Below, piece after piece: positions 2,675-64,000 of a stretch of 64,000 nt of DNA. The DNA comes from a virus. The DNA lies in the IMG/VR virus record IMGVR_UViG_3300010885_014582, positions 30,014 through 94,013 of that record; one strand, given 5' to 3'. Position 1 is the stretch's first letter, and every line of letters begins with the position of its first letter. The translations under genes and the position numbers were made by a program. A model generated the notes under the pieces. That model was not told the origin of the DNA. It ran no database searches and saw only the letters and a program-made list of their open reading frames with translations.

Positions 2675-4242
2675 TAGTTGCTACCAGTCAATCCACCAAC
2701 CATGTCAAAGTTAACAGCAATACGACTACTAATTTTGTCAGTAAAACATGGGAGTTGTGTTGCACTAACAGTCACATTGTTTACTGTACTTACAGTTGCT
2801 GGTGTTGAATCGTATGTTGTACTCAAGTTTGTAAGTATCACATAGTCAACTCCAGTGACAGATAGTGCTGCTCGGTACACTTCTCCAACAGTGAATATCT
2901 GTCCAAAAGACACATTATCAAAGGACAGCAAATCTCTAATTGCTTTGTCAACACCTGCTTGTACATAACTTTGTACATAATTAGTTTTTACATAAACTTG
3001 AATACCAACATAAATAGGTGTGCACTCAATGTACCGATCGACGCTTCCATGGTTAGCAGGGTTTACGACTGAAGCAGTTACACCCAACATTGACCTGGTT
3101 GAGAAGTACAACTCAATAGATTCTGTAGTATTCGCTGGTATTTCGATGATTACTTTGGTTGTACCAGAAGTAATTGGTTCAGGTGGGTAACTACTTTGAT
3201 AGGGAACTGGGTAGATAGTAACGGTTGGAGATGAGTATGTTGCTGTTGCTTTACTTACTGAGGGAATCTGTAAAGTTAAATCTTTATAGTCTTGTAATGA
3301 AACGGCTCGGTCTTGTGTTCGATATAGCCGAGACACATTGGATTTGATTGAACTAATTGATTCAGCATCAGCACCACCACTGGTTGCTCCAGACGACACA
3401 ACACTTATATAAGTGGACTGTGGTGAAGATGATACAAGTTTAATACCATTAGTTTGAAGGTTTCCATCGGATCCAGCAGTACTGCGGTAAGAGGCTGTAA
3501 TAGTTGCATTAGTAGTTGGCACTGTTCCGTTAAACCCATTACCAAATATGATTTGTGTGTATCCGTCAGAAGTACTTTTGGCAGTAAAAACTTTATCTAA
3601 ATAGTTAGCAGATGACAATTGTGCGACATAAGTGTACTCAACTGCTGAAGGCACACCACTAACAAGTGGTCCTTCGTAGACAAGAATGCTAATGCTGTTA
3701 ATGTCAACATTTGTTTTTAACAAAGAAAACTTTTGGTTAGTAAAACCAGCACTGGTACCAATTAGTTCATTAAAAACTAATGAACCTTGAATGACAGAAC
3801 CAGTTGCTTGTGTGGTAGTCACTAAATCTAAGGCAGGTAAATCATTAGCAAGGTAGAAATCATATTCGTTTCCATCAGCATCATAACCTTTGAAGGTAGT
3901 AAATTGTGGCACTGTGTAGGTTGTGGCACCAGCAGGTACTGAGTTTAATTTAACAGTTACTTGCCCACGAGATGCACGAGGTGATGCGGGGGCATAGTCC
4001 ATTAAGTTAGCAATTGCTAAAACTGAATCACGCTGTGTTGCAGTTTCTAAGAAAGTTTCTCCAGCAGCACGGTCAACATAAAAGTGAAGGACATCACCCA
4101 TGTACGCCCAAAGATCAACAAACATGTTTCCAAATTCGGAGGCGTCAGTGCCATCCCATTCTGGAATAGTCTTAGCGGCACGATTGATTAAATCTTGCCT
4201 GATTGATAAAAAATCTCTACTGGTGTAGTCAAATGTAGCCAT
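2674..4242 (-). CDS. Baseplate wedge protein (baseplate J / T4 gp6-like)
   Basis: DYTSRDF N-terminus, ETFLETATQRDSV, GGADAES...RAVSLQDY motifs. Confidence 0.9.
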   Translation of the reverse strand: MATFDYTSRDFLSIRQDLINRAAKTIPEWDGTDASEFGNMFVDLWAYMGDVLHFYVDRAAGETFLETATQRDSVLAIANLMDYAPASPRASRGQVTVKLNSVPAGATTYTVPQFTTFKGYDADGNEYDFYLANDLPALDLVTTTQATGSVIQGSLVFNELIGTSAGFTNQKFSLLKTNVDINSISILVYEGPLVSGVPSAVEYTYVAQLSSANYLDKVFTAKSTSDGYTQIIFGNGFNGTVPTTNATITASYRSTAGSDGNLQTNGIKLVSSSPQSTYISVVSSGATSGGADAESISSIKSNVSRLYRTQDRAVSLQDYKDLTLQIPSVSKATATYSSPTVTIYPVPYQSSYPPEPITSGTTKVIIEIPANTTESIELYFSTRSMLGVTASVVNPANHGSVDRYIECTPIYVGIQVYVKTNYVQSYVQAGVDKAIRDLLSFDNVSFGQIFTVGEVYRAALSVTGVDYVILTNLSTTYDSTPATVSTVNNVTVSATQLPCFTDKISSRIAVNFDMVGGLTGSN

Positions 4243-4672: not shown

Positions 4673-5833
4673 TTAAGAATAGACATAAATCATCTCATTT
4701 CTTGTCATCCAACGATTTCCTTTAAGTACTGGCTCAGTTAAATTAGGCATAGGTGCACTGATCACTGTGCTATCAACTGTCCCTGTGTCATTTGAGTCTT
4801 TAGCCAAAGTAAGGTACGACATTGCTGTACCACGGGATATTTCGTGCCTAACTGCTTGGACAATCCATAACCCATCTAAACCTGAGTTGTATTTGTCAAT
4901 TTTTACAACCATGCCAGGTTGGATAATAGGGTCTCCTACAATGTCTACATGAGCAATATAGGGTAAGTTGTGCCTACTGCGTCCTTTTAGGGATGCTTCT
5001 AGCATTTCTACTGAATGGGCATTACCAGAAATTTCATCTTTAAATATAGATTGAACTGTCTGACCATAGCCAGTAGACTCATTATTAGATTTGGTAATAA
5101 TTTGGTTACCAACTAATGCATGCATGGTCCCAGAAGTTTTTGCTGACAATGGGGTAATGGCTCCAATTACACCATGAAACTTAATTACTTGACCAGGTGC
5201 TGACGATAATCTTCCACTGTTACCAGACATTGCATATAAAGGTATTGATCCTGTACGACTAAAGGATGCAAATGGATCCCAGATATCAATGTGTACCCCA
5301 CGCATAATTACTTGGTAACCAAGGTAATTAGCAGCATGTACAAGTAATTCCCAATCGGACATTTCAGACTGTACTAATCTTGGAAAGACATACCTATCAT
5401 TTGGAACAGCCAATGTTAATGCATATTCGTTTGCAAGGGCTGTTGCAATTTGTGGCAAAGTCTTGTTTTCCCATGATCGTGATTTGCGACTCCGCATTGG
5501 GTATGACGAACCTAAACAATATATTCTTGTAATTTGGAATGGGCTGTTATCAATAAGACCATTTTTATTTACTGACTCTGGTTCTAGGTAAGTAATGTAC
5601 CCAACAAAACCATACATACGGATCTGACCAACACTTACTTTTATTGATATAGGTACATCAATAAAATCAGTTAAACTTTGTGGGGGTATTCCACCAACTT
5701 CTAAAATTGCAAGGTTGTGCATATTTTCTTGTAGTTCAATGTTGACACGCTTAACAGAAGCATAGTCAAGGTACATACCATTAACTATTACTTCAAATTT
5801 AATATCAAGGGGAGATGCACCAGAAGTAATCAT
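4673..5833 (-). CDS. Baseplate hub (gp27 / late control D-like)
   Basis: QSEMSDWELL and VGDPIIQPG...GLWIVQAVRH motifs; synteny. Confidence 0.8.
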   Translation of the reverse strand: MITSGASPLDIKFEVIVNGMYLDYASVKRVNIELQENMHNLAILEVGGIPPQSLTDFIDVPISIKVSVGQIRMYGFVGYITYLEPESVNKNGLIDNSPFQITRIYCLGSSYPMRSRKSRSWENKTLPQIATALANEYALTLAVPNDRYVFPRLVQSEMSDWELLVHAANYLGYQVIMRGVHIDIWDPFASFSRTGSIPLYAMSGNSGRLSSAPGQVIKFHGVIGAITPLSAKTSGTMHALVGNQIITKSNNESTGYGQTVQSIFKDEISGNAHSVEMLEASLKGRSRHNLPYIAHVDIVGDPIIQPGMVVKIDKYNSGLDGLWIVQAVRHEISRGTAMSYLTLAKDSNDTGTVDSTVISAPMPNLTEPVLKGNRWMTRNEMIYVYS

Positions 5834-51408: not shown

Positions 51409-51930
51409 CTAGTAACCACGCTCTTGCTTGAGTTTGGCTGCATGTGCTTCGACATCTGATGGCTTGAACTGGACAGACAACTTGTGTGTACCACCTTCGG
51501 TAGCCCATGGGAACCATCCTCTGACATGATCAGGGTGTATACCCTCTACTGGGCGTGTTCCCTGTGCCATCTCCTGTAGTCCCTTGACGGTCCCAACCAC
51601 GGCTGACCTCAGTGTTCGTCCAGCAGGAACATTAAACTCATGAAATGGTTGGTCACTGGCTGAACTAATCAACTTAACCCTGGCGTAAGCCTCATCCCAA
51701 ACTGGGGTACCTTTTTTAGTCGTGCCTTTTTGGCGGGGAGTACTGTGTTCTACATGGGCTTGTATCATTGAAGAGTTACCATATGGAACATCCAGGATGG
51801 CATGGGAAGCAATTGTTGGGTTTTCAAAGTCATCTTCTGATGATTGCCACTGGTCGTCATGCTCTGGACCTGTGGATAGGCGGGCGACAATATGGTTATG
51901 TCCTGAATTAAAGGCTTCGTTACGACTCAT
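51409..51930 (-). CDS. Hypothetical protein (first gene of the minus-strand arm)
   Basis: TATACT-6nt-ATG leaderless start. Confidence 0.7.
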   Translation of the reverse strand: MSRNEAFNSGHNHIVARLSTGPEHDDQWQSSEDDFENPTIASHAILDVPYGNSSMIQAHVEHSTPRQKGTTKKGTPVWDEAYARVKLISSASDQPFHEFNVPAGRTLRSAVVGTVKGLQEMAQGTRPVEGIHPDHVRGWFPWATEGGTHKLSVQFKPSDVEAHAAKLKQERGY

Positions 51931-52040
51931 ATATCTAGTATAGGGCTATCTGGGGCGGGTTTTTTGTTTACCCCATTTCCTGGATAGGGCTACATGGCGG
52001 ATCTGTGTGTCTTGGGGGGATGTTCCCTACCCCCCGACCC

Positions 52041-52242
52041 TGTGACGGGCGTCACTTAACCATGGGGGGGTGTGACAAATGGCACATGTGACGAAGGTCA
52101 CACCGCCAAACCATGTGACATTCGTCACTATCCCTTGACAGGAGACCCGATCTATGACCAGTAAATGAAACCCTTATATCATATGGGTCGCAGGGGTAGT
52201 CATACCATAGGGCGCCCTTTGTCAAGTGTGACATTTGCCACT
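52041..52242. repeat. Five TGTGA-N6-TCACA-like palindromes (CRP/GlxR-box-like)
   Basis: 52041-56, 52071-86, 52087-102 (perfect), 52114-29, 52227-42. Confidence 0.75.
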
Positions 52243-52723
52243 TACCCATGGGTAAACCCTTATGCCATAAGGAAACCCCACCAGACACGCCAGAACGCCC
52301 CTTACCCGTGAGTAACCCCTGTTTGGGGGTGCTTATACCTTTTTGCGATTTTGGGCGCTTAAACGGCGTCGCTACCCCCTGAAAAGGGGTCAAAATGGGG
52401 GCAATTACCCCTGATTTCATTGGCTATCTGCGTATATTCACATTTTTCAATTGAAATCTCTGGGGATGGGTCGAGGGCTATCGATGGGGGCGCTGGGGCG
52501 TGAGGGCGATGTGGGTAGGTCACATGACCCCCAGAGCCACAGGAATCACAATGAGCCAGCCACGCCAGCCACCAGCCACACATGCACCTGCATCCCCTCC
52601 TGTTCCTTCCCTTGGAACCCTCTGGAAACGATTCGGTTTTGCGCCCTTTTCCTTGCCCTGTAAGGCTCAGAATCGATCGTCCACGAGCACATATATATGC
52701 CCCAGAAACTTTGATTGAAACTA

Positions 52724-52815
52724 TTGACGCCAGCCCATCCACCTGCGAGACTGGGAACGGAGGGCACATATTCCCCTCCGAGTGGCTTGACACCGCTCCA
52801 CGGTCAATTAATTGC
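52724..52815 (+). promoter_or_regulatory. Candidate early sigma70-type promoters
   Basis: TTGACG-17-GAGACT (52724-52752) and TTGACA (52787) with a weak AT-rich -10. Confidence 0.4.
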
Positions 52816-53075
52816 TAGGCGCCTTCGGGCTTGCAAAGGCTCCCGTGGAGATGCCAGTAAACAGAGGTGAAGGGAACATGGCGTGAGCCATGGGTGATGC
52901 AACACACCCCAATAACAAAGCCTGTCATCTTGGTAGAGATGGCTGATTCGGCGCCCACGATATGGCGCCCCAATTCACAGTCCTGCACTTCTCTTCGGAT
53001 GAGTTCAGTGAGAGCAACCTTTCACTGTCGGAGCAACACCGAGCGCAGGGGCTAATGCCACACGGCATTTACAAC
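52815..53075 (+). ncRNA. Highly structured leader / candidate ncRNA
   Basis: Dense hairpins with UUCG and GNRA loops; multibranch junction at 52978-53053. Confidence 0.55.
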
Positions 53076-53089
53076 AAAGGAGCACCACG

Positions 53090-53272
53090 ATGGCAACATC
53101 GACATACTCAATCAAAGTCAATCGTCACGAAGGTGACGGTTGGCAAATCTGGGCAATTCTTCTCACCAAAGAAGAGGGTCTCAAGCAAGTCCGTGAGTCC
53201 AATAAATGGGCGAAGGACAACGGCTTTCAGTGGACATACCTCCTCTGCCGTCCGACTCTGCCAGAGGGTTAG
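53090..53272 (+). CDS. Early hypothetical protein
   Basis: AAAGGAG RBS. Confidence 0.7.
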   Translation: MATSTYSIKVNRHEGDGWQIWAILLTKEEGLKQVRESNKWAKDNGFQWTYLLCRPTLPEG

Positions 53273-53284
53273 TAACACTCACCT

Positions 53285-53370
53285 GCATCACCGCTTCGGC
53301 GGTGGTGCTCACAAAGGGCATTGGCTTCGGTCAGTGCCTTTTGTGAGCATCTGCTCAAGCACCACCACAA
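53285..53370 (+). repeat. Three-hairpin structured element, copy 1
   Basis: GCATCACCGC-TTCG-GCGGTGGTGC; CTCACAAAGGGCATTGGC-TTCG-GTCAGTGCCTTTTGTGAG; GAGCA/TGCTC; AGCACCACCAC. Confidence 0.75.
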
Positions 53371-53383
53371 CAAAGGAGTTCAC

Positions 53384-53974
53384 ATGAACAGATATCAAAA
53401 CTTAAAGCATTACGCCCAAATCAAAGCGAACATCAAGAAGCGCAACTCAAACTTTGCAGAGCGCAACTTGTGGGACGCAATTCCAGTCATCAACGAAGAT
53501 TCCCAGTGGGGACAACTTGTCAAAGACTTCAGCATCGACTCGCACGATGGTCATGTTGGCGTCGTGTCCAGCCGTGAGCCGTTCAAGAAGCGTGACGGTC
53601 GCTGTGGTGTCCGCATCGAGATGGAGTTCATCAACCACACAACAGCGAATGAGTACAGCCCAGATGTGCGGACACGCAAGTTTGAGTTCATCTACAAGCC
53701 AGAAGCACCTGTTGCGACTGCGACTGTGCGTGAGTTCAACTTCGTAGTGGTCGCCACTGTCGACGAGCACGGTGTGACCACCTTCTCGATTGACTCTGCT
53801 CGCAGTGACGCTTGCGTCGATGCGGTGTACGAGTACCCAGCAGGCACTGACCAGTACGACCCACGATGTGACCAGCGTGGTTACAACGGTGTTGGTGAGC
53901 ACGAGACAGCCTCTCGAATCGTTGACCTACTCGCTGATGCGCTCGTATCCATCTCATACCCAACCAACGCCTAG
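53384..53974 (+). CDS. Early hypothetical protein
   Basis: Start moved to MNRYQ after the AAAGGAG RBS. Confidence 0.75.
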   Translation: MNRYQNLKHYAQIKANIKKRNSNFAERNLWDAIPVINEDSQWGQLVKDFSIDSHDGHVGVVSSREPFKKRDGRCGVRIEMEFINHTTANEYSPDVRTRKFEFIYKPEAPVATATVREFNFVVVATVDEHGVTTFSIDSARSDACVDAVYEYPAGTDQYDPRCDQRGYNGVGEHETASRIVDLLADALVSISYPTNA

Positions 53975-53984
53975 GAGGCACCAC

Positions 53985-54311
53985 ATGAACAGCAACCGCA
54001 AAGGAATCATCCACGAGTGCCAGCCAGAAGTATCTGACTGGATTCTCTGCGCCGACTTCGAGGACGAGATGCCTCATGACAACCCAGAGCGTCACAAGTG
54101 GCACAACCGTGTCCTAGGCGACTTCCAGACGGAGACAGGCGTGTACCTGCTCGACCTGACAGTCGACGAGAACGACGGTGACCCCGACTATGACGAGGTC
54201 GCATTCAGACTCACGAATCACGGGTTCGACATCTACAACAGCGACACCTACTTCGAGGTGTACAACAAAGCAGTCTTCTGCGACGACGAAGAGTGTGGGG
54301 AGGTTCGCTGA
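53985..54311 (+). CDS. Acidic early protein
   Basis: Start MNSNRK after AGGAGG. Confidence 0.75.
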   Translation: MNSNRKGIIHECQPEVSDWILCADFEDEMPHDNPERHKWHNRVLGDFQTETGVYLLDLTVDENDGDPDYDEVAFRLTNHGFDIYNSDTYFEVYNKAVFCDDEECGEVR

Positions 54312-54375
54312 CCCAGACAACCATCCATCGATCCCTTTCAACCACACACCACCCAAACCGCCTAGGAGGCACACA

Positions 54376-55290
54376 ATGAGCACCAGCACATCAATCCATG
54401 AGCACGCAGTCGAAATCGACACACGGCTCGCTACGACCTACAAGCACCTGTCCGACATCGAGTACAGCATCGAGCGTGCTGAGAGCGCCATTCGCCGTGC
54501 GACTGGTCAGACCTACCACCACGGTCAGTGGGACGGCACACTGCACGACGCACTGATAGTGACTACCTTCCGCACCGAGTGGGACGCCAGAGGTCATGAA
54601 GATGGCATCAAGTCACTCAATGACTTGCGCCCAGTGCGTGACTCACTGAATGTCATCATCGATGCCTGCAACGCCGACTGGCGTGACAATGGTCGCTGGT
54701 CGAGGTTCTATCTGGTCACCAACACCAACGGTCACATCCACTCCAGCCTCGGTTGCTCGACCTGCTTCCGTGACACCAACTTTGCTTGGCTCACTCATCT
54801 CTCAGGACTCGATGAGGCAGACGCTGTGCAGGCGGAAGGCGAAGTGCTCTGCACAATCTGTTACCCGTCAGCGCCAGTGTCATGGACGAACGGCATCAGC
54901 CGTCGTGACAAGGAAGCCAAGGCACTGCGTGAAGCCGAGAAGGCAGAGCGTCAGCGCATCAAGGCTGAGAAGTCACTGAGCATCAACGGTGATGTGGTCA
55001 GCATCCGCATCGACCCGAAGGAAGGCTCTCGCTACTACGGTCACAAAGACTTCAAGACATTGCGCTCTGCGGAGTTGTGGCTCGTCGAGGCATACACACA
55101 TGTCTTAATCGAGTCATGGAAATCCCTTGGCGATACGAACTGCTGGTCAGTGACACCTGATGCCTTCAGCAATGAGAACCACGCTCTCGTGCTCGACCTG
55201 TACCTCAAGAAGACAGGCAAGGCGTTCGACGATGTCGTGCCTGCCTTCCTCAAGAAGGCTGAGAAGAAGGCACGAGGCAATCGCTACTAG
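54376..55290 (+). CDS. Early protein with Cys/His (Zn-binding) motif of actinophage type
   Basis: WSRFYLVT...GHIHSS..CSTC...LCTICYPSAPV; start MSTSTS after AGGAGG. Confidence 0.75.
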   Translation: MSTSTSIHEHAVEIDTRLATTYKHLSDIEYSIERAESAIRRATGQTYHHGQWDGTLHDALIVTTFRTEWDARGHEDGIKSLNDLRPVRDSLNVIIDACNADWRDNGRWSRFYLVTNTNGHIHSSLGCSTCFRDTNFAWLTHLSGLDEADAVQAEGEVLCTICYPSAPVSWTNGISRRDKEAKALREAEKAERQRIKAEKSLSINGDVVSIRIDPKEGSRYYGHKDFKTLRSAELWLVEAYTHVLIESWKSLGDTNCWSVTPDAFSNENHALVLDLYLKKTGKAFDDVVPAFLKKAEKKARGNRY

Positions 55291-55295
55291 TAACT

Positions 55296-55400
55296 GGGGC
55301 GTCACAGCATCGCTGTGGCGCTCTCAGAGGGCATCAGACACGCTCTGGTGCCTTCTGAGGGCGGACACCGCCCAGCACCACCACAACGACCTTAGGAGGT
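55296..55400 (+). repeat. Three-hairpin structured element, copy 2
   Basis: GGGGCGTCACAGC/GCTGTGGCGCTCT; CTCAGAGGGCATCAGA/TCTGGTGCCTTCTGAG; GGGCGG/CCGCCC. Confidence 0.75.
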
Positions 55401-55406
55401 CACACA

Positions 55407-55916
55407 ATGTCCATTTACTCATACGGCATCACTGGTACCCGTCATCTCGACGGCATCGGTCAAGTCTCAACAGTCAAGTTCCGCTTCTCTCGCTCATACG
55501 CAGACAACGCACGCATTGCACGCCAAGAGCGTGCGGACAAGGCGTACATCGATCGATTCGATGGCGTCAAGTTCCCTCATCTCGTCGCTTACCGTGGCGC
55601 TCTTGGTGTGTGGACAAGTGACAGTGTCATCGGTGACGAGTGCATCGAGAACTTGCGTGGTGGTGTCCTGAAGTACCTGCCAGAAGCAGAGTTGAACGCT
55701 CTTCCCTTGTGGGTCATCTTCGCTGTTCAAGCAGTCGACCGAGGCGACATTCCATTCGTGCCGACCAGCGAGAAGGAATACCAACTCATCACCGATGCCT
55801 ACATCACCTTGCGCTTGCGCCAGCGTGGTGACCGCAACGCTCAACCACTCATCCGTAACAACAAGTGGTGGGTCAAGTTGCTCGACAGCAACTTCCACCA
55901 AACAGCAACCGCCTAG
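55407..55916 (+). CDS. Early hypothetical protein
   Basis: AGGAGG RBS. Confidence 0.75.
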   Translation: MSIYSYGITGTRHLDGIGQVSTVKFRFSRSYADNARIARQERADKAYIDRFDGVKFPHLVAYRGALGVWTSDSVIGDECIENLRGGVLKYLPEAELNALPLWVIFAVQAVDRGDIPFVPTSEKEYQLITDAYITLRLRQRGDRNAQPLIRNNKWWVKLLDSNFHQTATA

Positions 55917-55925
55917 GAGGCACAC

Positions 55926-56150
55926 ATGTACATCATTCAACTTAGTTTCACGAGGTCACCACGCATACCGAAGTACCTGAAGGCACATCACTTGCGTGGA
56001 GGCAGAATCGTCACCACCCGTCACCAACACTGTGCACGCAAGTTCAAGTCTGAAGCAGAGGCGCAAGAGTTTGTAGACAAACTCAGCATCTACTACCTCG
56101 GCTATGTCTGGACAGTCGTACCGTTCATCCCACAATCAGTAAGCGCCTAG
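55926..56150 (+). CDS. Small basic early protein
   Basis: AGGAGG RBS; ARKFKSEAEA. Confidence 0.7.
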   Translation: MYIIQLSFTRSPRIPKYLKAHHLRGGRIVTTRHQHCARKFKSEAEAQEFVDKLSIYYLGYVWTVVPFIPQSVSA

Positions 56151-56162
56151 GAGGCACACACA

Positions 56163-56822
56163 ATGTCAGCAACCACCATTACCCCCAAGCAACAATCCTT
56201 CGTGCGCTCATTGCTCACTGAGCGCCAAGCAGTGCTCGGTATCGATGACATCGATGCGTACATCAGGGAGAAGGGCATCGATCGATTGACTGGTGCATCT
56301 GCCAGCAAGGTCATCGAGCAACTGCTCACGATTGCCAAGCCAGTGAACCCAGAGCACGCTCACCTGCCCCAAGGTCATGTCATCGTCAACAAGCGTGACG
56401 GTGTCTGCACCAAGTGCAACGGTGAGGTGCTCAAGTTCGACGGCTTCGCTGTCGCTGTCAACGGAGGTTGGAAGACCTTCCACAAGGCAGATGAGTGCCT
56501 ACCAGAACCAGCCACGCTCGAAGCCATCGAGTTCGGCTACTACGCACTGCCCAGTGCCACTGGCAACAACGACCTCGACTTCTTCTTCGTCAGTAAGAGC
56601 CGTGAGATACGCCGTGTACTCGGTGGTCATGCACCGCTCCGCATCTCGACGACAGAGGTCAAGCAAGTAGTCGAGCGCCTCACAGCGCTCACAGAAGAGC
56701 AGGTGCGTGACGCACACATCCTCTACGGTCAAGAGATTGGCTCGTGCGGATTGTGTGGTCGGTCACTCACTGATGAAGCGAGCCGTGCTCGTGGACTTGG
56801 TTCTGACTGCGCCAGCAAGTAA
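56163..56822 (+). CDS. DUF6011-like zinc-finger protein
   Basis: TPKQQSF...ASKVIEQL N-domain; CGLCGRSLTDEASRARGLGSDC. Confidence 0.8.
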   Translation: MSATTITPKQQSFVRSLLTERQAVLGIDDIDAYIREKGIDRLTGASASKVIEQLLTIAKPVNPEHAHLPQGHVIVNKRDGVCTKCNGEVLKFDGFAVAVNGGWKTFHKADECLPEPATLEAIEFGYYALPSATGNNDLDFFFVSKSREIRRVLGGHAPLRISTTEVKQVVERLTALTEEQVRDAHILYGQEIGSCGLCGRSLTDEASRARGLGSDCASK

Positions 56823-56864
56823 CCTCAACACCCCAAGCAAGCACCACCACAAGAAGGAAACGAA

Positions 56865-58406
56865 ATGTCCAATGAAAGAAATGCCCTTGACGCCCTGCTC
56901 GCAGGCTCCGTCAAGGTTCAACCACCACAAGATGTCAACCCAGAACTCACAGCACTGTCCAGTGCACACGACTTCGATCTTGGCTTCGACCTAGCACTGC
57001 CACTGCTCCCGTACCAGCGTGCTGGTGCTGGCTACGCACTCAAGCAACGCCGTGTCATCCTCGGTGATGAGATGGGCTTAGGTAAGACACCTCAACTCAT
57101 CGCTGTTGCTGTCAAGGCTGTTGAAGAGGGACACCGTGTCCTCATCAGCGTGCCACCGTCACTGCGTATCAACTGGGTGCGAGAGATTGCCAAGTTCACT
57201 GACAATGCGTTGAGCGTTGAAGTCATCGATGGTACGAAGCCGTACAAGTTGTCTGGCGCTGATGTCACCGTCATTGGTGACGCTGGACTCACTGGCTGGG
57301 CACCTGCGCTCGACCGTCAAGGCTTCGGTGCACTGCTAGTCGATGAGGCACACCGCTTCAAGAACGCCAAGTCAAAGCGCACCATTGCTCTTCAGGGCAT
57401 CGCTCGTGGCATCCCACAGGATGGGTATGTCGTGCTCGCCTCTGGTACGCCAGCGGTCAACCGTCCAGTCGAACTGGTGGCACTGCTCGACATCATTGGC
57501 ACGCTCGACCCAGTGTTCGGTAGTGCTGGCTCATTCAAGTTCCGCTACTGCGACCCAGTGAAGAACAACTTCGGTTGGACATTCGTTGGTTCATCGAACA
57601 GTGCAGAACTACACGCCAAGTTGCGTGGCACCTGCTACATCCGTCGTCGCAAGAATGATGTGCTCACTGAGTTGCCTGCGAAGCGTCGTGCATCTGTAGC
57701 GATCGAATTGTCAGACACTGAGTTGAAGGAATATCTCAAGATTGAGAATGAGTTCCTCGGCTGGGTGTTCGAGAAGGGCGGTCGTGAGGCTGTGCTGAAA
57801 GCATCTCGTGCTGAAGCAATCACCAAACTCACCGCACTGCGTCAGTCAATTGCCAAGGCAAAGATAAAGCACGCCATCAACCACATCGAGACCATCATTG
57901 ATGGTGACGAGCCAGTGGTGGTGTTCGGGCATCACCGCTCAGTGCTCAACGCAATCATCGATGAGTGTCGTGCACGCTCCGTTGAAGACCCACGATGGAA
58001 TGTCGTGAGTGTTCTCGGTGGCATGACTGACAGTGCCAAGCAGTTAGCGGTTGACGACTTCCAATCTGGTCGTGCGTCAATCTTCGTAGGCAACTACGAG
58101 TCTGCTGGTGTCGGTCTCACACTCACCCGTGCGAACCAGTGGGTGTCTGTGGAGAATCCATGGACGCCTGCCTCACTCAGTCAAGCCGAAGACCGTTGCC
58201 ACCGATTCGGGCAGAGCGAAGCAGTCACCTGCTGGAACCTGCTCGGTGTGCGTAGCAACGGTGTCGACACGATCGATGAGCGCTTGTTCGCACTGCTCAA
58301 CTCAAAGCAAGAAGTACTGAGTTCAGTGCTCGACGGATTCGCTGAAGACTTGAACGCTGACAACGACTCACTGTTGTCATCGCTCTTGTCCGACTGGGTC
58401 GGTTAA
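56865..58406 (+). CDS. SNF2-family (SMARCAL1/HARP-like) helicase/ATPase
   Basis: DEMGLGKT, DEAH, SGTP..NRP, RRRKNDVLTELP, GVGLTLT, QAEDRCHRFGQ. Confidence 0.93.
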   Translation: MSNERNALDALLAGSVKVQPPQDVNPELTALSSAHDFDLGFDLALPLLPYQRAGAGYALKQRRVILGDEMGLGKTPQLIAVAVKAVEEGHRVLISVPPSLRINWVREIAKFTDNALSVEVIDGTKPYKLSGADVTVIGDAGLTGWAPALDRQGFGALLVDEAHRFKNAKSKRTIALQGIARGIPQDGYVVLASGTPAVNRPVELVALLDIIGTLDPVFGSAGSFKFRYCDPVKNNFGWTFVGSSNSAELHAKLRGTCYIRRRKNDVLTELPAKRRASVAIELSDTELKEYLKIENEFLGWVFEKGGREAVLKASRAEAITKLTALRQSIAKAKIKHAINHIETIIDGDEPVVVFGHHRSVLNAIIDECRARSVEDPRWNVVSVLGGMTDSAKQLAVDDFQSGRASIFVGNYESAGVGLTLTRANQWVSVENPWTPASLSQAEDRCHRFGQSEAVTCWNLLGVRSNGVDTIDERLFALLNSKQEVLSSVLDGFAEDLNADNDSLLSSLLSDWVG

Positions 58407-58430
58407 CAAACAATCTGAGGTGGTGCTCAT

Positions 58431-58542
58431 GGGCGTCACGAGGGCAACCTCGTGGCGTGCCAAGGGCACTGTGACACCCCCCCGTGCCACAGTGTCTTTG
58501 GGACGCAAGTCCACAAGCACCCAACCAATGCCTAAGGAGGCA
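58431..58542 (+). repeat. Three-hairpin structured element, copy 3
   Basis: GGCGTCACGAGG-GCAA-CCTCGTGGCGT; CCAAGGGCACTGTG/CACAGTGTCTTTGG; GGAC-GCAA-GTCC. Confidence 0.75.
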
Positions 58543-58546
58543 ACCA

Positions 58547-58780
58547 ATGTCCACACGAATAAGTACACACTCTGTAAAAGCAGAGTCCATCAAAATAAGA
58601 GTTTCTTCTACTCAAGAGTCAGGTAGTGGTTTCGACATCACAGTCCATGATGATGAGGGAGCACGCACTTGCTTTCAATTGTTCCTTGCTGATGGTGACA
58701 CAGTCCGACAGGCTCTTGAGCAACTGTTGAACCAAGTCATTGCAGGCATCGTCACACTTGAAGTGCTGGGTAAGAAATGA
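58547..58780 (+). CDS. Early hypothetical protein
   Basis: Start MSTRIS after AAGGAGG. Confidence 0.7.
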   Translation: MSTRISTHSVKAESIKIRVSSTQESGSGFDITVHDDEGARTCFQLFLADGDTVRQALEQLLNQVIAGIVTLEVLGKK

Positions 58781-59067
58781 GCACAGACAAAGCACCTATC
58801 GGTATCGACTGTGCCGTGACATACCACGACAGTCCAGACGGTTACGAAGATGCATACATCTCGTTCTCGGAGGAATTACTCAACCATGAAGGCGAGCCAG
58901 CAGAGGAAGACATCTACGGCGTGCCCGACGATCGAATCTTCTTCTACTTCAACGCTGAACAGCAAGAGGCACTGGGCGTAGCAATCGCTGAGGACAAGGA
59001 CAAGTTCCACCTCGGAGAAGAGTGGTACATCGACCTCGAAGAGGGCTACACACTCGTCTACGAATAG
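58777..59067 (+). CDS. Highly acidic early protein
   Basis: ATGA overlap; Asp/Glu-rich. Confidence 0.75.
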   Translation: MSTDKAPIGIDCAVTYHDSPDGYEDAYISFSEELLNHEGEPAEEDIYGVPDDRIFFYFNAEQQEALGVAIAEDKDKFHLGEEWYIDLEEGYTLVYE

Positions 59068-59072
59068 ACAAT

Positions 59073-59178
59073 GGCATCACTGGCACACAGGTGCCAGTGG
59101 TGTCCTTAGAGGGCTTAGGAGTCGTCCTGAGCCTTGTAAGGGCATCGCCCAAAGCAACCACCACGACCTTAGGAGGTC
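59073..59178 (+). repeat. Three-hairpin structured element, copy 4
   Basis: GGCATCACTGGCAC/GTGCCAGTGGTGTC; CCTTAGAGGGCTTAGGA/TCCTGAGCCTTGTAAGG; GGGC/GCCC. Confidence 0.75.
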
Positions 59179-59180
59179 AC

Positions 59181-59615
59181 ATGAAAACCCAACTACTACT
59201 CACCATCGACCATCCAGATGATGTGCCTGCACATGACTTCATTGCTATCGCTATCAAGAGCGTGCTCAATGACATCAATGCAGACCTCGACGATGACTGG
59301 TCACTCACTGCCACCGACATTCAGCCACGCAACTACCAGTTCTTGCAGGACTACGCATTGAAGTGCTCACTCGAACACCACCTGTGCAATGTTGAAGAAC
59401 TCATCGATGAAGGGAAAGCACCTGCCGACATTCTTGATCTTGTAGAGGCTGGCTCCAATGACCCAGTGATCTGGGAGCGTTACGAATACGACCCACGAGA
59501 AGATGTCGTCGAGTCAATCGAAGATGCACGAGGTGTGCACCTCTTCAACTTCAGTGAACTACTCAAAGAAATCAACGGTGAACAATGGTTCACCAACTTC
59601 AAGGAAGGTAAGTAA
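59181..59615 (+). CDS. Acidic early protein
   Basis: Start MKTQLL after AGGAGG. Confidence 0.75.
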   Translation: MKTQLLLTIDHPDDVPAHDFIAIAIKSVLNDINADLDDDWSLTATDIQPRNYQFLQDYALKCSLEHHLCNVEELIDEGKAPADILDLVEAGSNDPVIWERYEYDPREDVVESIEDARGVHLFNFSELLKEINGEQWFTNFKEGK

Positions 59616-59617
59616 CA

Positions 59618-59950
59618 ATGAGCGATATAAAAATCGACGAGATAACCCAGTGGGAAGAGAAGTACAAGCCCATCGCTAACCACATCGACTCTGGCGCAAG
59701 TTGGACGAATGACAAGGGTGAGGGACTTATGTTCGAGACCTACGGTGCCGAAGAAGACTTCGTCCGCCAACAGCCAGACAACAATGTGTGGACATGGGTA
59801 GACGGTGATGGGGGATCATTCATCATCACTGGCATGGCGTTCGTGAATCGCATTGGTTACTTCGTGACCAGCGAGCCATGGACTGACCATGTCGAAGTAC
59901 AGGTCGACACATACGAAGACAGCGACGACGAAGACGACGAGGAATCATGA
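59618..59950 (+). CDS. Acidic early protein
   Basis: FETYG...VWT...VNRIGYFVT..PW pattern. Confidence 0.8.
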   Translation: MSDIKIDEITQWEEKYKPIANHIDSGASWTNDKGEGLMFETYGAEEDFVRQQPDNNVWTWVDGDGGSFIITGMAFVNRIGYFVTSEPWTDHVEVQVDTYEDSDDEDDEES

Positions 59951-60195
59951 AGACCAAACAATTAGAGAATTTCTGTGAGGCACTAGCAAGCCTCTACGAA
60001 TCAGAGTTATGCACGGCACCAGAGGACACTGAGACCGACTGGTGGCATGCATTCAATGAATACATCGATGTGAACCTTTGGTCAGATGGCGAGCGCTTGC
60101 TCGTCAGTGCCTATCGGTACACAGAAGACGGTCTCGACACAACCACCCATACCAACATCATCGACAAACAAATCAAACCAAGGAGTCAGCAATGA
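59947..60195 (+). CDS. Early hypothetical protein
   Basis: ATGA coupling. Confidence 0.7.
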   Translation: MKTKQLENFCEALASLYESELCTAPEDTETDWWHAFNEYIDVNLWSDGERLLVSAYRYTEDGLDTTTHTNIIDKQIKPRSQQ

Positions 60196-60557
60196 GTAAG
60201 ACCTACGATCACTTGCACAACATCCAGCAACGCCAACACGCACTGGAACAGCGCATCAACAACGCTGTGAAGGTTCGCATCTACCCACTTGACCTCATTG
60301 ATGAGCCAATGAGCGAGTGGGAATGGCATGTTGAAATAACTATCCCAAACAATCAGTGGGAGGACTCAGATGAAGATGGAAACTTCTTCGTCCACCGTGC
60401 AGGCATTGACGCTTTCTACTCCCTCGACGATGCGTTCAAATGGGCGTACAAGTGGTTGAATGGTCGTGGCTACGACCTCTCAAGCATTGAATTAAACCTC
60501 GACTCCATCTTCTGTGATGGCATTATCAAAAAACAACCAACAAGGAGCCAGCAATGA
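60192..60557 (+). CDS. Early hypothetical protein
   Basis: Start MSKTYD after AAGGAG. Confidence 0.7.
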   Translation: MSKTYDHLHNIQQRQHALEQRINNAVKVRIYPLDLIDEPMSEWEWHVEITIPNNQWEDSDEDGNFFVHRAGIDAFYSLDDAFKWAYKWLNGRGYDLSSIELNLDSIFCDGIIKKQPTRSQQ

Positions 60558-61447
60558 CTACACAAGTAACACCCAACAAACAACATGTAAACCATCCCTT
60601 CGACGGTCGATCCCGTGAAGGCAAGATTGCCAAGCAACTACGAAACCTCAAGGACTGGGATCACGCCGAGTACACCGAGACTTCAGTCAATGAATACGGC
60701 AGAGAAGTAGCCACCTACACCACTGAACTTGACTTGGTCATCGAAGATGCACACATCGAGGTGCTGAAGAAACTGGTTGAACTCAATGGCTCTGTCCCAC
60801 AGCAGTACTTGGTGACTCGTATTGTCATCGATGTCGTCAAAGATGAAGCCATCTCAATCACTTACAAGGAACTGGGAGTGCAAGAGAACGACGGACTCGA
60901 ACTCACTGTGAGCGGTAGTTCATCTACTGTGAAGCCTGACAGGTGGGAAGACCCACTAGGTTGGGCGTTCTGGCACAGGTTGGTCACTGCGTATCACACT
61001 GGTACTGCGTTCAACCTCGATGAGCAGACGCTTGCATACGGGCTGGAGTCACTTGCCAAACAGCAAGAGCGTCTAGCAAAGCGTGAAGCATTGCTGGCAA
61101 ACTTCGAGCCGTCATCTATTGACCTCAGGACAATTGCACGACTTGAAGAAGTTGTGGCGAATGATGACAAGCAAATATCAGGGTGGAGCGACTCTGAGAA
61201 GGCACTGAACGCAATCATCTGGGAAGGTGTTCGTTACTGTTCACGGTACGCACTGGAGTTCGCACACAAGACAACTTACGATGGTCGTCATTACATATTT
61301 GACACATCAGATCATCATGTCATCACTGTCACTGAGGCATACGGATACACCGTGTCTCACCTGCTGACCAGCAACAACGATCATGTGGTAGAGGCGCTAC
61401 AGCGTCAAGTACTTCAGTCATTCACCAAACTAATTCAGAGATGGTAA
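60554..61447 (+). CDS. Early hypothetical protein
   Basis: 297 aa, AAGGAG RBS, DGRSREGK motif. Confidence 0.75.
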   Translation: MTTQVTPNKQHVNHPFDGRSREGKIAKQLRNLKDWDHAEYTETSVNEYGREVATYTTELDLVIEDAHIEVLKKLVELNGSVPQQYLVTRIVIDVVKDEAISITYKELGVQENDGLELTVSGSSSTVKPDRWEDPLGWAFWHRLVTAYHTGTAFNLDEQTLAYGLESLAKQQERLAKREALLANFEPSSIDLRTIARLEEVVANDDKQISGWSDSEKALNAIIWEGVRYCSRYALEFAHKTTYDGRHYIFDTSDHHVITVTEAYGYTVSHLLTSNNDHVVEALQRQVLQSFTKLIQRW

Positions 61448-61457
61448 GGAGATAACC

Positions 61458-62003
61458 ATGGACGACACAATAACCAACTGCCCAGAATGCAAAGAGGAGT
61501 TCGACACACAAGAGTGTGGAGTGTTCTCAGAGATAAAGGGGGACTACTACTGCGAAGCGTGCTATCAAAACGACCTTGAGTATTCGTCCACCTTGATCGT
61601 GTTTGATCGTGGGGAGGTAAAGCGATACAACATCGGTGACCTCTTCCGTGTCAACGAATACGGTGACGATGCTTCCATCGAAGTCGAGCGCAAGTACACC
61701 TCAACTGATGCATGGCGTGGATTCCACAACACATCAGTGGTTGGTTCAGTCACTGTGCTCGATGGTTGGACTACTGGTGGCTGGGGTGACCCAGTCGCTG
61801 ACCGCAAGGCAGTGTTCAATGACTGGCTCGAAAACAATTTGGAGTATCCACCAGTGATCCCTTATTCTTTCTCTGTGAGCATCGACCCAACATCAAACCT
61901 CTTCTCATCATCCATAACTGTGCAGGTCGGCGCTGACAACGCTGATGACTTCAAGTTCTGGCTCGCTGAGGAACTAGACCAACTACAACAAGCACTCTCG
62001 TAA
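61458..62003 (+). CDS. Early protein with N-terminal zinc finger
   Basis: CPEC...YCEAC; STDAWRG. Confidence 0.75.
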   Translation: MDDTITNCPECKEEFDTQECGVFSEIKGDYYCEACYQNDLEYSSTLIVFDRGEVKRYNIGDLFRVNEYGDDASIEVERKYTSTDAWRGFHNTSVVGSVTVLDGWTTGGWGDPVADRKAVFNDWLENNLEYPPVIPYSFSVSIDPTSNLFSSSITVQVGADNADDFKFWLAEELDQLQQALS

Positions 62004-62014
62004 AGGAGATACCA

Positions 62015-62254
62015 ATGAAACAACCAACACTTACCTGCCTTGGTTTCAAGGCTGATGTCATTTGGGGAGGCTCTGGTGAGGTGTCACACATCTATGTGTC
62101 ACTCACCGATGCCACCAGCGAGTACTACATGACCAAGAGCGATCTTGACACATGGCTCAACGACCCAGAGCACTACTCATACATCCTTGCGTGCGAGTTC
62201 CTCTCACACTCAAATGAAATCGAATGGGTCTTCGACCTAGAGGAGGTTCAGTAA
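62015..62254 (+). CDS. Early hypothetical protein
   Basis: AAAGGAG RBS. Confidence 0.7.
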   Translation: MKQPTLTCLGFKADVIWGGSGEVSHIYVSLTDATSEYYMTKSDLDTWLNDPEHYSYILACEFLSHSNEIEWVFDLEEVQ

Positions 62255-62415
62255 TGCTGGAGCAACACATACAACTACATAAGTTTGTGGCGTCAATCGA
62301 TAAAGATTCGTTGCACACTGACTGGCATGTATCCGAACTGTGTCACATAATCGAAACACTCAATGAATCACTCGGTGAGTTAATTGAACTACTTGAAAAA
62401 GGAGAACAGAAATGA
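62254..62415 (+). CDS. Early hypothetical protein
   Basis: Start MLEQH, TAATG overlap, GGAGG. Confidence 0.6.
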   Translation: MLEQHIQLHKFVASIDKDSLHTDWHVSELCHIIETLNESLGELIELLEKGEQK

Positions 62416-62660
62416 CAATCATTATTCGTGACTACAAAGAGGGTGAAAATATCCCTGATGCAGAGAACAATATGTCTTACAGATATGAACAACTAGACGG
62501 GGCGGTGTATCTCCGTAGCGATGACATCACAGGTGCAGAGACCTATCTGCTTACTAACGGTACTGTAGCAGTCCTACAATCCATCGACCTTGAATGGGTG
62601 GAGCCACTTAACATCCGCCTTCTAATAACAAAACCAGTCCCACCAACAGAGGAGTACTGA
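62412..62660 (+). CDS. Early hypothetical protein
   Basis: AAGGAG RBS. Confidence 0.7.
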   Translation: MTIIIRDYKEGENIPDAENNMSYRYEQLDGAVYLRSDDITGAETYLLTNGTVAVLQSIDLEWVEPLNIRLLITKPVPPTEEY

Positions 62661-62661
62661 C

Positions 62662-62835
62662 ATGCCGTTGTACACAATGACATACGAAATAATCACCCGT
62701 CACATACATGAAGTAGAGGCTGACAGCGAATTTGAGGCAACGCTCAAGTTCGGCTGGAATGAATCTGTGTGTGTTGACACGACACAAGAAGTAATAGCAA
62801 CAGCAACCAAAGAAATAGAAAGGTCTCAGCGATGA
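62662..62835 (+). CDS. Small early protein with EVEAxxExEA motif
   Basis: Hand-translated MPLYTMTYEIITRHIHEVEADSEFEA... Confidence 0.65.
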   Translation: MPLYTMTYEIITRHIHEVEADSEFEATLKFGWNESVCVDTTQEVIATATKEIERSQR

Positions 62836-63077
62836 GCATATTCAAATTCAACATCCAGTGGACGCATGAAATCGAAGTCGAGGCAATCGATGAAGATGAA
62901 GCGTTCGAGATCGTCTACGGCGGAGTCATCCTTGATGACTACGGCAAGGGCAAGGGTTACTTATCTGTCGAACTAGAAGTAGACGACAGTGCAACCACAG
63001 AGTGGGGACTGTTTGACACAGACCCTGAAGAAGAAGACATCACCTACCTCAGCCTCAATGATGCTGAGTATCTCTAA
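62832..63077 (+). CDS. Acidic early protein with EVEAxDEDEA motif
   Basis: Motif shared with the previous gene. Confidence 0.7.
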   Translation: MSIFKFNIQWTHEIEVEAIDEDEAFEIVYGGVILDDYGKGKGYLSVELEVDDSATTEWGLFDTDPEEEDITYLSLNDAEYL

Positions 63078-63088
63078 GGAGAGAAACA

Positions 63089-63328
63089 ATGACAACAGAT
63101 AACCTCACCCTGTTCTGCCGAGAATGTCTCACGACATGGCATAACATCGATCCTGATACTGGCGTGTGCACTGTGTGTGAAACACCAAACATCTTGGAAC
63201 GATTCAAGTTCACCCTTGATTGCAGTCTCACTGGCTACGACCGCACTGACCTTGTCAGCGAGTTGCAGTTCTTCGTTGAACTTGCAATCGAGCGTGGTCT
63301 ACTCCCACAGGACACGGTGGTCATCTAA
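63089..63328 (+). CDS. Early zinc-finger protein
   Basis: CREC...CTVC. Confidence 0.7.
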   Translation: MTTDNLTLFCRECLTTWHNIDPDTGVCTVCETPNILERFKFTLDCSLTGYDRTDLVSELQFFVELAIERGLLPQDTVVI

Positions 63329-63552
63329 TGAGCATGACCGACCCAAGCCCGTACCTAAATAGACAAGAGGGATTCGAAGTCTGGTGGGCATCCGTTGGAT
63401 GTCTGCCAGATGCAGAGTCACCAGCGTTCATTGGAACTATCTCTGAGTGCATTGCTTACACGCAAGACGACCCAGATGGTTACTTCGACACCGTAGGTGA
63501 CTACAACCTTTATACATTCACCATTCAACCCCACAATCCTGAGGAGGACTAA
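63328..63552 (+). CDS. Early hypothetical protein
   Basis: GCLPD motif; TAATG coupling. Confidence 0.7.
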   Translation: MSMTDPSPYLNRQEGFEVWWASVGCLPDAESPAFIGTISECIAYTQDDPDGYFDTVGDYNLYTFTIQPHNPEED

Positions 63553-63555
63553 CAC

Positions 63556-63852
63556 ATGGGTTACTTAACCGCATACGACACATTCACGCAAGCAGGAGAC
63601 CTGAGTGAAGCACTCAGCATCCACTTCTCATCTAACTGCTATCCACCAGTGCCCCAGTACATGGTCGCTGTTGCTGTAGAGGCAATTGAGAATGTGCTCA
63701 ATGAAGAAGACTCTGCACCAATAGATCTTCCAGAAGGCGTCACATGGCGTGGAGAGCGCACTGTGCGTTCTCTGTCTGCCATTGAGTCACTGCACTTGGA
63801 AGCATTCGTGGATGCCCTGCTCGACGGGGAGTACGCAGATGAAGATCAGTAA
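63556..63852 (+). CDS. Acidic early protein
   Basis: HFSSNCYPPVP...IDLPEGV...HLEAF. Confidence 0.75.
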   Translation: MGYLTAYDTFTQAGDLSEALSIHFSSNCYPPVPQYMVAVAVEAIENVLNEEDSAPIDLPEGVTWRGERTVRSLSAIESLHLEAFVDALLDGEYADEDQ

Positions 63853-64000
63853 CTACGAAAAGTTTCGTAACCGAGTACTCATCCCACTGTCTGTCCCGTT
63901 CTACGCATTCGGTGCGTACCTTGGGCTGTTCATGAATGTGTACTTTCGTGGTCAACCGATCACCTTCATCGTGTCCTTTGCTTTAATCGGTACAGGCATG
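63839..64000 (+). CDS. Membrane protein (truncated by window edge)
   Basis: MKISNYEKFRNRVLIPLSVPFYAFGAYLGLF...; GGGGAG upstream. Confidence 0.55.
   Translation, partial: MKISNYEKFRNRVLIPLSVPFYAFGAYLGLFMNVYFRGQPITFIVSFALIGTGM

Follow-up and report, generated by a model that had tools for sequence, protein, structure and literature searches.

Intercistronic three-hairpin RNA modules in the presumed early arm of a lineage of uncultured phages

In the early region of phage T7 the RNase III sites R0.3 to R1.3 are hairpins lying between a stop codon and the next ribosome-binding site; each is a single hairpin with an internal loop at the cut site, and cleavage leaves a protective 3' hairpin on the upstream message. 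For phages of Actinomycetota little is known, as far as we are aware, about the post-transcriptional control of early operons, and the only comparable repeated motifs known to us, those called SAS and ESAS, have been unexplained since 2011. Considered here is a structured element that fills four intercistronic gaps in a stretch of 64,000 nucleotides (the window), comprising bases 30014-94013 of the 94,013-bp IMG/VR virus record IMGVR_UViG_3300010885_014582, which is judged complete. In working logic its closest described counterparts are the T7 RNase III sites together with the hammerhead arrays of phages, in host range and layout they are SAS/ESAS, and in shape the put sites of HK022. As it misses at least one defining feature of each of these, it is filed as an intercistronic structured RNA of phage early operons.

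The module, of about 100 nt, has three contiguous hairpins (HP1, HP2 and HP3) without spacer, and all four copies are on the plus strand. Copy c1 (53285-53357) consists of HP1 at 53285-53308 (10 bp, UUCG loop), HP2 at 53309-53346 (17 bp, UUCG loop) and HP3 at 53344-53357; a 60-aa gene with its stop codon at 53270-53272 is upstream, and downstream come a CA-rich linker, a Shine-Dalgarno (SD) sequence and the ATG at 53384. Copy c2 (55296-55373; HP1 55296-55324, HP2 55323-55359, HP3 55359-55373) lies between the stop codon of a 304-aa gene (55288-55290) and, after the linker, an SD mini-hairpin at 55388-55401 with the ATG at 55407. Directly 3' of the gene for an SNF2 helicase (stop 58404-58406) is c3 (58432-58512), with HP1 at 58432-58458 (GCAA loop), HP2 at 58460-58501 and HP3 at 58501-58512 (GCAA loop), followed by an SD hairpin at 58529-58542 and the ATG at 58547. 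The fourth, c4 (59073-59150; HP1 59073-59104, HP2 59104-59141, HP3 59140-59150), comes after a 96-aa gene (stop 59065-59067) and before an SD hairpin at 59165-59178 and the ATG at 59181. Thus HP1 begins 5-25 nt past a stop codon, and from the end of the module to the next start codon is about 25-40 nt. An open reading frame at 58429-58626, starting inside the 5' flank of c3, was considered as coding and rejected; its ATG is AGG in a relative of 83% identity.

As RNA of the plus strand the four copies fold at -50 to -74 kcal/mol (z -6.1 to -6.8), with none of 200 shuffles as good; on the opposite strand z is only -2.7 to -4.0, because G-U pairs turn into A-C mismatches there. A covariance model (R1) built from the four copies scores c1 at 89.2 bits (E 4.6e-28), c2 at 82.1, c3 at 60.4 and c4 at 76.1, that is 60-89 bits at the copies and 18 bits or less everywhere else in the genome, and a regular expression for the HP1 motif has, in the whole 94,013-bp record, four plus-strand matches and one unrelated minus-strand match. 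A preliminary description, made from the letters of the window, had placed copies at 53285, 55296 and 59073, where they stand, and a further one whose start is now set at 58432. Its HP1 motif with the same U-G wobble in all four copies, its HP3 overlapping the 3' foot of HP2, its UUCG and GCAA loops, and its CA-rich linker with the SD sequence behind it are all to be seen in the window; the lack of a U-tract that it remarked on holds for window and family alike, whether after HP1, HP2 or HP3.

It had also proposed that a covariance model from the four copies be taken to viral sequences. Run against relatives collected through their SNF2 helicase gene, R1 gives some 158 matches at E <1e-5, every one on the coding strand, in related uncultured phages, with at least 112 distinct sequences among them. 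They are confined to loci whose SNF2 protein is at least ~49% identical, with none in loci at 45% or at 41% and below. The phrase 'repeated four times' is therefore exact for the 94-kb genome and too narrow for the element. Copy number is 4-8 per genome, within ~7.5 kb around the SNF2 helicase gene, and three complete relatives of 95-97 kb have 7-8 copies each in such a stretch. Copies flank single genes or short blocks, and the identity of the flanked genes varies.

Compensatory change, claimed at the outset for the outer stems, is extensive in the family. When the 150 best matches were aligned (112 distinct sequences, on which all pair counts rest), 98.0% of pair cells were paired, as against 76.6% for shuffles and 29-50% for slid partners; 23 of the 24 pairs change on both sides, and there are 546 double-change cells where 137 are expected. 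An alignment fitted to the model leans towards structure, and RNAalifold alone gives the same two helices. Among the copies linked to SNF2, c3 has a positional orthologue in every relative whose SNF2 protein is ~50% identical or more, and the orthologues keep all three hairpins while sharing almost no sequence apart from the foot of HP1. A relative of c4 (L033:4450-4552) has a G-C pair of HP2 swapped to C-G.

HP1 has a median of 10 bp and a mean stability of -17 kcal/mol. Its foot, GCRUCAC/GUGGYGC, reads G-C, C-G, R-Y (A-U in 61, G-C in 45), U-G, C-G, A-U, C-G; the U-G wobble is retained in 104 of the 112, with C-G in all 112 and A-U in 109. Above the foot there is a free, GC-rich extension, and the loop is GNRA or UNCG in 87/112 (78%). 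HP2 abuts it directly, with a median of 17 bp and a 5th-95th percentile range of 15-18, and is fully paired in 84 of the 112. The HP2 foot is conserved (CUCACAG/UUGUGAGG, consensus CUCACAG/UUGUGAG) with recurrent G-U, and the upper half and the loop are free: between orthologues the sequence of HP2 turns over completely and its length is held. The AGGGC...G(C/T)CTT by which HP2 was initially described is accurate for the copies of this phage and does not extend to the family, where the consensus foot just given applies.

HP3 is of 4-7 bp and diverse (GGAC/GUCC, GGGCA/UGCCC, GAACAUC/GAUGUUC and others), with a mean segment z of -2.9, and shares with HP2 two bases, which end HP2 and begin HP3. 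At the border of HP1 and HP2 two bases have a choice of partner, at the start of either HP1 or HP3, and covariation is seen in both registers. It is thus around the meeting point of the three helices that conservation is concentrated. In a single subfamily the HP3 loop contains TACAAT. The linker that follows has a median of 10 nt, is 47% A and 9% G, and is single-stranded; after it comes an SD mini-hairpin whose outer pairs also covary (GA..UC, GU..AC, UA..UA), in the context NNCCU-GAGG-AGGNN or GCCUAGGAGGC. From the start of HP1 to the start codon the median distance is 108 nt (10th-90th percentile 99-115). Since GNRA and UNCG tetraloops and fixed G-U pairs are signatures of RNA, the sequences point to a sense-strand RNA element rather than to folded DNA; the single-stranded DNA role that had been offered as an alternative is disfavoured by the same sense-strand conservation of G-U and by the 78% of HP1 loops that are GNRA or UNCG.

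Some further features surround the hairpins. Most gene starts of the arm (53965-59181; also in relatives, e.g. L038-L060) have their SD sequence within a mini-hairpin of 4-6 bp, GCCU-AGG-AGGC or NNCCU-GAGG-AGGNN, and the symmetric ends around AGGAG in these recall the SAS motif of cluster K. In the linker the word AGCACC(ACC) is complementary to GGUGGUGCU. For c3 an extra closing stem is possible between its 5' flank (58419-58427) and its linker (58516-58521), and in c3 and its orthologues the GGUGGUGCU word of the 5' flank could in this way join the three hairpins in a closed four-way junction resembling a cloverleaf; in c1 the linker word (53358-53366) could instead rival the 5' arm of HP1 as pairing partner of the 3' arm (53300-53309). 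Both kinds of linker-word pairing are found only in the subclade of this phage. A likeness between the arms of HP1 and HP2, on one side, and the 3' tail of 16S rRNA and SD-like words, on the other, was dropped as too short to be meaningful.

As for distribution, a strict pattern for the main subfamily finds 40 stretches in IMG/VR, many on contigs already collected via SNF2. The same subfamily-specific pattern, which divergent host copies could escape, has 22 matches in 185,579 bacterial and archaeal species genomes, a number of chance order (a rough estimate being ~40), and these reach at most 23 bits with the covariance model as against ~25-89 for true members. In Schaalia suimastitidis DSM 15538 there is, away from the pattern match, a 23-bit R1 match (L131:3764-3857) that is below every true member. 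These pattern searches of IMG/VR and of prokaryotic genomes found no copies beyond the phage lineage. With Rfam 15 the whole window has no match at gathering scores, and at E up to 5 the region 52800-59400 has chance-level matches only, with no more than 19.7 bits on the elements where gathering scores are 48-70. The early surmise of an undescribed element thereby passed its Rfam check, and on this comparison the family is undescribed, the 8,495 anonymous candidate RNAs from IMG/VR in Fremin et al. 2023 (PMC10690425) not having been compared.

With the T7 sites the element shares its occurrence in several copies per early polycistronic mRNA, its position in gaps between stop codon and ribosome-binding site (in the family HP1 mostly begins 5-26 nt after the stop codon, and 10-30 nt separate the end of the module from the next start) and an architecture common to the copies and to related phages. 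It differs in having three contiguous, fully paired hairpins, a sequence-conserved junction and a presumably actinobacterial host rather than Escherichia coli, and any cleavage of it is putative; in place of about two turns of double-stranded RNA with an internal loop there are the 15-18 bp of HP2 or, with HP1 and HP2 stacked end to end, ~27 bp. The hammerhead arrays (Perreault et al. 2011, PMC3088659) likewise consist of multiple structured units flanking single genes or short blocks of variable identity. Here, by contrast, there is no catalytic core, almost no unpaired nucleotide is conserved, and any cleavage would need protein. Put of HK022, compared by its description, also has two adjoining hairpins in nascent early RNA, with a conserved structure and variable sequence, and it modifies host RNA polymerase in cis without need of a phage factor. 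However, put, of ~65 nt, is present once downstream of each early promoter, near to it and upstream of terminators, whereas here adjoining HP1 and HP2, spanning ~62-75 nt, are always followed by a third hairpin, and the 4-8 copies per operon (four in the present phage) are intercistronic, at gene 3' ends, in an arm in which no terminators were detected.

T4-type PeSL cassettes consist of an early promoter and a stem-loop. They too are repeated regulatory units at the borders of small early genes that are shuffled between related phages, but most copies of the present element are without a match to -10 and -35 boxes, and a consensus scan of 51500-64000 for promoters and terminators found promoter-like sites in the arm at shuffle level and nothing in the four elements. 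Integron attC sites are single imperfect hairpins with conserved R and L boxes, extrahelical bases and an adjacent integron integrase; unlike them the element has three perfect hairpins with RNA-type tetraloops, and no integrase is among the roughly 50 proteins covered by a non-exhaustive scan of the genome. Of the canonical intrinsic terminator, a GC-rich hairpin with a U-tract of 7-9 nt directly behind it, only the hairpins are found. SAS/ESAS (Pope et al. 2011, PMC3203893) resemble it in belonging to actinobacteriophages, in lying in a non-structural arm in one orientation, and in having inverted repeats with variable spacer, closely followed by a conserved motif that includes the SD sequence and has symmetric ends. 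Their sequences are not similar: compared with the published description, neither the SAS consensus GGGATAGGAGCCC (13 nt) nor the 17-bp imperfect inverted repeats without pairing-preserving departures are found here. The ESAS authors saw in such departures no support for pairing in RNA and preferred DNA binding as the explanation (PMC3203893), whereas the pairing described here covaries at 23/24 positions.

From comparison of related loci the element travels with its upstream gene. All members of the element-bearing clade have the SNF2-linked copy, with different next genes in this phage and the loci L033 and L034; relative to a 144-aa gene, the 96-aa gene (58777-59067) and the copy that follows it have changed position together. 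A natural variant lacks exactly the SD sequence, the 60-aa gene and the hairpins of c1 (junction 53074 to 53356), its deletion joint being at a CAA microhomology outside the hairpins. In two metatranscriptome runs (X1, X2), whose contigs were used for indel junctions only, related phages depart from the window by indels or replacements of cassette size, and the junctions 53074/53356, 55406/56028 and 62658/62832 fall at the linker or SD sequence or exactly at the start codon.

With the structure, strand, conservation and placement of the element established, as is its association with cassette borders, what might it do? The anatomy leans to processing and end protection, or to a platform for factor binding, on account of the linkage to the upstream gene, the tetraloop-capped HP1, the fixed length of HP2, the A-rich linker and the copies flanking genes or blocks. 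Our tentative preference, with a probability of about 0.4, is for an intercistronic processing or stability module of polycistronic early mRNA, in which cleavage, the enzyme and the stability effect are what we infer. An endoribonuclease, of the host or recruited by the phage, would cut the transcript within the module, either in HP2 if of RNase III type or in the linker if of RNase E/J type. The upstream cistron would then end in HP1 as a protective 3' cap, the 5' end of the downstream cistron would be shielded or set by HP3 with the SD hairpin, and neighbouring gene cassettes would in this way gain independent stability and translation. The fixed length of HP2 with free sequence looks like a ruler for an enzyme that binds double-stranded RNA, and the high stability of HP1 is as expected for a block to 3' exonucleases. 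In prophage hammerhead arrays the same layout has been interpreted as serving the processing of long phage transcripts (PMC3088659).

Several points weigh against this. T7 RNase III sites typically have an internal loop, which HP2 lacks. The strict sequence in the foot of HP1, with its invariant C-G and near-invariant A-U, is more than stability or processing alone would need; such strictness implies a specific reader, which could be a nuclease, an RNA-binding regulator or RNA polymerase. In relatives, one of the 7-8 copies is in the leader, ahead of the first gene and 100-200 nt downstream of TTGACA boxes, where no cistron precedes it that it could protect. Other gaps in these arms of relatives are occupied by a second structured module, so that the role may be generic or the readers several. 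Finally, the two metatranscriptome runs are of long contigs over both arms at even depth without transcript ends; these probably represent DNA carry-over.

This second, unrelated module, of ~95-110 nt, is in gaps nearer the arm start (L047:2982-3075 and 3328-3427; L058:2537-2641 and 3155-3255; L053:4528-4624 and 5027-5137). It has a CCCCAG/CUGGGG stem around two small hairpins, one with a UUCAAU loop, and then a hairpin of 6-7 bp, a linker and an SD hairpin; R1 does not match it, and a regular expression finds no copy of it in the genome under study.

A bolder form of the processing idea, somewhat unlikely as fully stated, is that a dedicated, sequence-specific system for processing or marking RNA recognizes the module. 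A host or phage protein would read the ~15-bp HP1/HP2 junction including its U-G, measure the 17-bp HP2 and cut or tag the mRNA at the 3' border of each cassette, making it a protein-dependent counterpart of the phage hammerhead arrays; the module would at the same time be a joint for the exchange of 'gene plus 3' module' cassettes between phages.

Unlikely, but the best placed of the explanations that dispense with processing, is processive antitermination or anti-Rho action, either put-like, needing RNA only, or nut-like, with a phage or host protein; RNA polymerase or a factor would bind the HP1-HP2 junction as it emerges, for elongation through a 13-kb operon of many small genes. The abutting hairpins do resemble the double hairpin of put, of ~65 nt (PMC8632103), conserved feet with free apices would suit a binding site, and the leader copy of relatives follows TTGACA promoters in phages that would rely on host RNA polymerase. 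Against that, known elements of the put, nut, EAR and canT kinds are single in their transcription units and not present in 4-8 copies at gene 3' ends, the promoter and leader region of this phage (52788-53089) has no copy by R1, the consensus scan detects no intrinsic terminators within the arm, and there is no conserved first gene that could encode an N-like factor.

Might the junction, with its continuous strand GUGGYGY-N-CUCACAG, instead be an operator for a phage or host RNA-binding protein that turns translation or decay of early genes up or down in concert, in the manner of T4 RegA-type control or of the unexplained SAS/ESAS motifs of cluster K mycobacteriophages? We consider this quite unlikely, even with strict conservation restricted to the surroundings of the ~15-bp three-helix junction and its fixed wobble, with a constant distance to the SD hairpin, and with a distribution like that of SAS/ESAS (in the non-structural arm, all in one orientation and directly before gene starts; PMC3203893). 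The conserved part is at least 60 nt upstream of the SD sequence, beyond direct blocking of ribosomes, and PHROGs and Pfam searches of the arm proteins found no RNA-binding or RNase domain in any of them. Two arm proteins of no known fold (61458-62003 and 63556-63852) are in its favour, being present only in element-bearing relatives, at 22-23 of 32 loci versus none of eight element-free ones, although their co-occurrence may merely reflect clade membership. In the 181-aa protein encoded at 61458-62003 the N-terminus carries CxxC...CxxC, and a GWTTG motif is invariant; the structure is predicted with confidence (pLDDT 87.9), and fold comparison gave no match (Foldseek E 0.025 or worse, VIA-align Z at most 3.9).

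More improbable again is that the modules are factor-independent terminators or attenuators without U-tracts, grading transcription of the arm or insulating cassettes. Stable GC-rich hairpins do follow directly on stop codons, the element does travel with the upstream gene, and hairpin clusters have been put forward in silico as terminators (PMC8355165). Efficient termination is nonetheless unlikely, for U-tracts are absent, hairpins without them fail to stop mycobacterial RNA polymerase even in the presence of NusA and NusG (PMC3993855), one subfamily precedes the first gene of relatives, and most copies have no promoter-like sequence before the next gene, which efficient termination would therefore silence.

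We regard as very improbable a DNA-level or selfish element, whether a folded single-stranded site for recombination or priming (attC-like or ssi-like) or a REP/MITE-like hairpin repeat marking cassette joints. Differing gene content 3' of orthologous copies, natural-variant indel junctions at linker or SD sequence and a single orientation, as in integron cassettes, are what it would explain; the RNA signatures noted above, the constant register with stop and start codons, the deletion joint outside the hairpins, the lack of a recombinase among the proteins of the non-exhaustive scan and of any copy found outside the lineage all speak against it. Self-cleaving ribozymes (hammerhead, twister, pistol, hatchet, HDV-like) are unlikely because the helices adjoin directly, leaving no unpaired core with conserved nucleotides, and Rfam gives no match.

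The phage itself has myophage genes (tail sheath, baseplate wedge, portal and large terminase by protein scan) along with a WhiB-like regulator, a family A DNA polymerase, a DnaB-like helicase, a UvsX-like recombinase and a Cas4-type exonuclease. No phage RNA polymerase is among the large proteins scanned and candidate promoters are of the host type with TTGACA, from which early transcription would be by host RNA polymerase. In tblastn the best matches of the terminase TerL, at 45% identity, are Streptomyces phages BRock and LuckySocke, and those of the SNF2 helicase in cultured phages (Streptomyces phages) are at most 34% identical; by megablast, 53000-59400 has no match in 50,697 phage records, and there is no cultured close relative among them. 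Arm proteins 54376-55290 and 56163-56822 match phages of Actinomycetota only, and from these two and the Streptomyces-phage-like terminase the host is presumably an actinobacterium. One run holding the sequence is a freshwater metatranscriptome. A second SNF2-family helicase, of 518 aa, is encoded on the minus strand among the replication genes outside the window (G000:C1:22912-24468, equivalent to L114:4912-6468); a queuine tRNA-ribosyltransferase-like protein (L113:5114-6553) is also encoded in the genome.

Genes are on the minus strand until ~52800, from where the plus-strand arm runs to the end of the record and, if the genome is permuted, on into its first 1.8 kb. The arm opens, in 52788-53089 on the plus strand, with a candidate host-type promoter (TTGACA at 52788) and a structured leader of ~265 nt, the folding z of which is only -2.4; the equivalent leader of relatives has two TTGACA boxes and one three-hairpin copy. 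Several palindromes of TGTGAC-N4-GTCACA type are in the strand-switch region (52041-52240). G+C is 53-56% in the arm as against 44-47% elsewhere; set out more finely, it is 52-56% in the first 8 kb of the arm (52000-60000) and 36-50% in the rest of the window, and on the coding strand of those 8 kb C exceeds G and A exceeds T. To call the arm 'early' seems reasonable from its content of small acidic proteins, a DUF6011 protein and the SNF2 helicase.

With more than 100 natural variants, near-perfect covariation, a fixed wobble, a ruler-like hairpin and a defined register with stop and start codons, the element is a clean system for study. Should it prove to be a processing or stabilizing site, it would provide a compact and portable intercistronic insulator for synthetic operons in actinobacteria as well as a handle on RNase specificity in actinobacterial hosts; should it be an antiterminator or operator, it would represent a new class of RNA that binds RNA polymerase or a protein. 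In either event it marks the borders at which early gene cassettes are swapped, and so bears on the origin of phage mosaicism.

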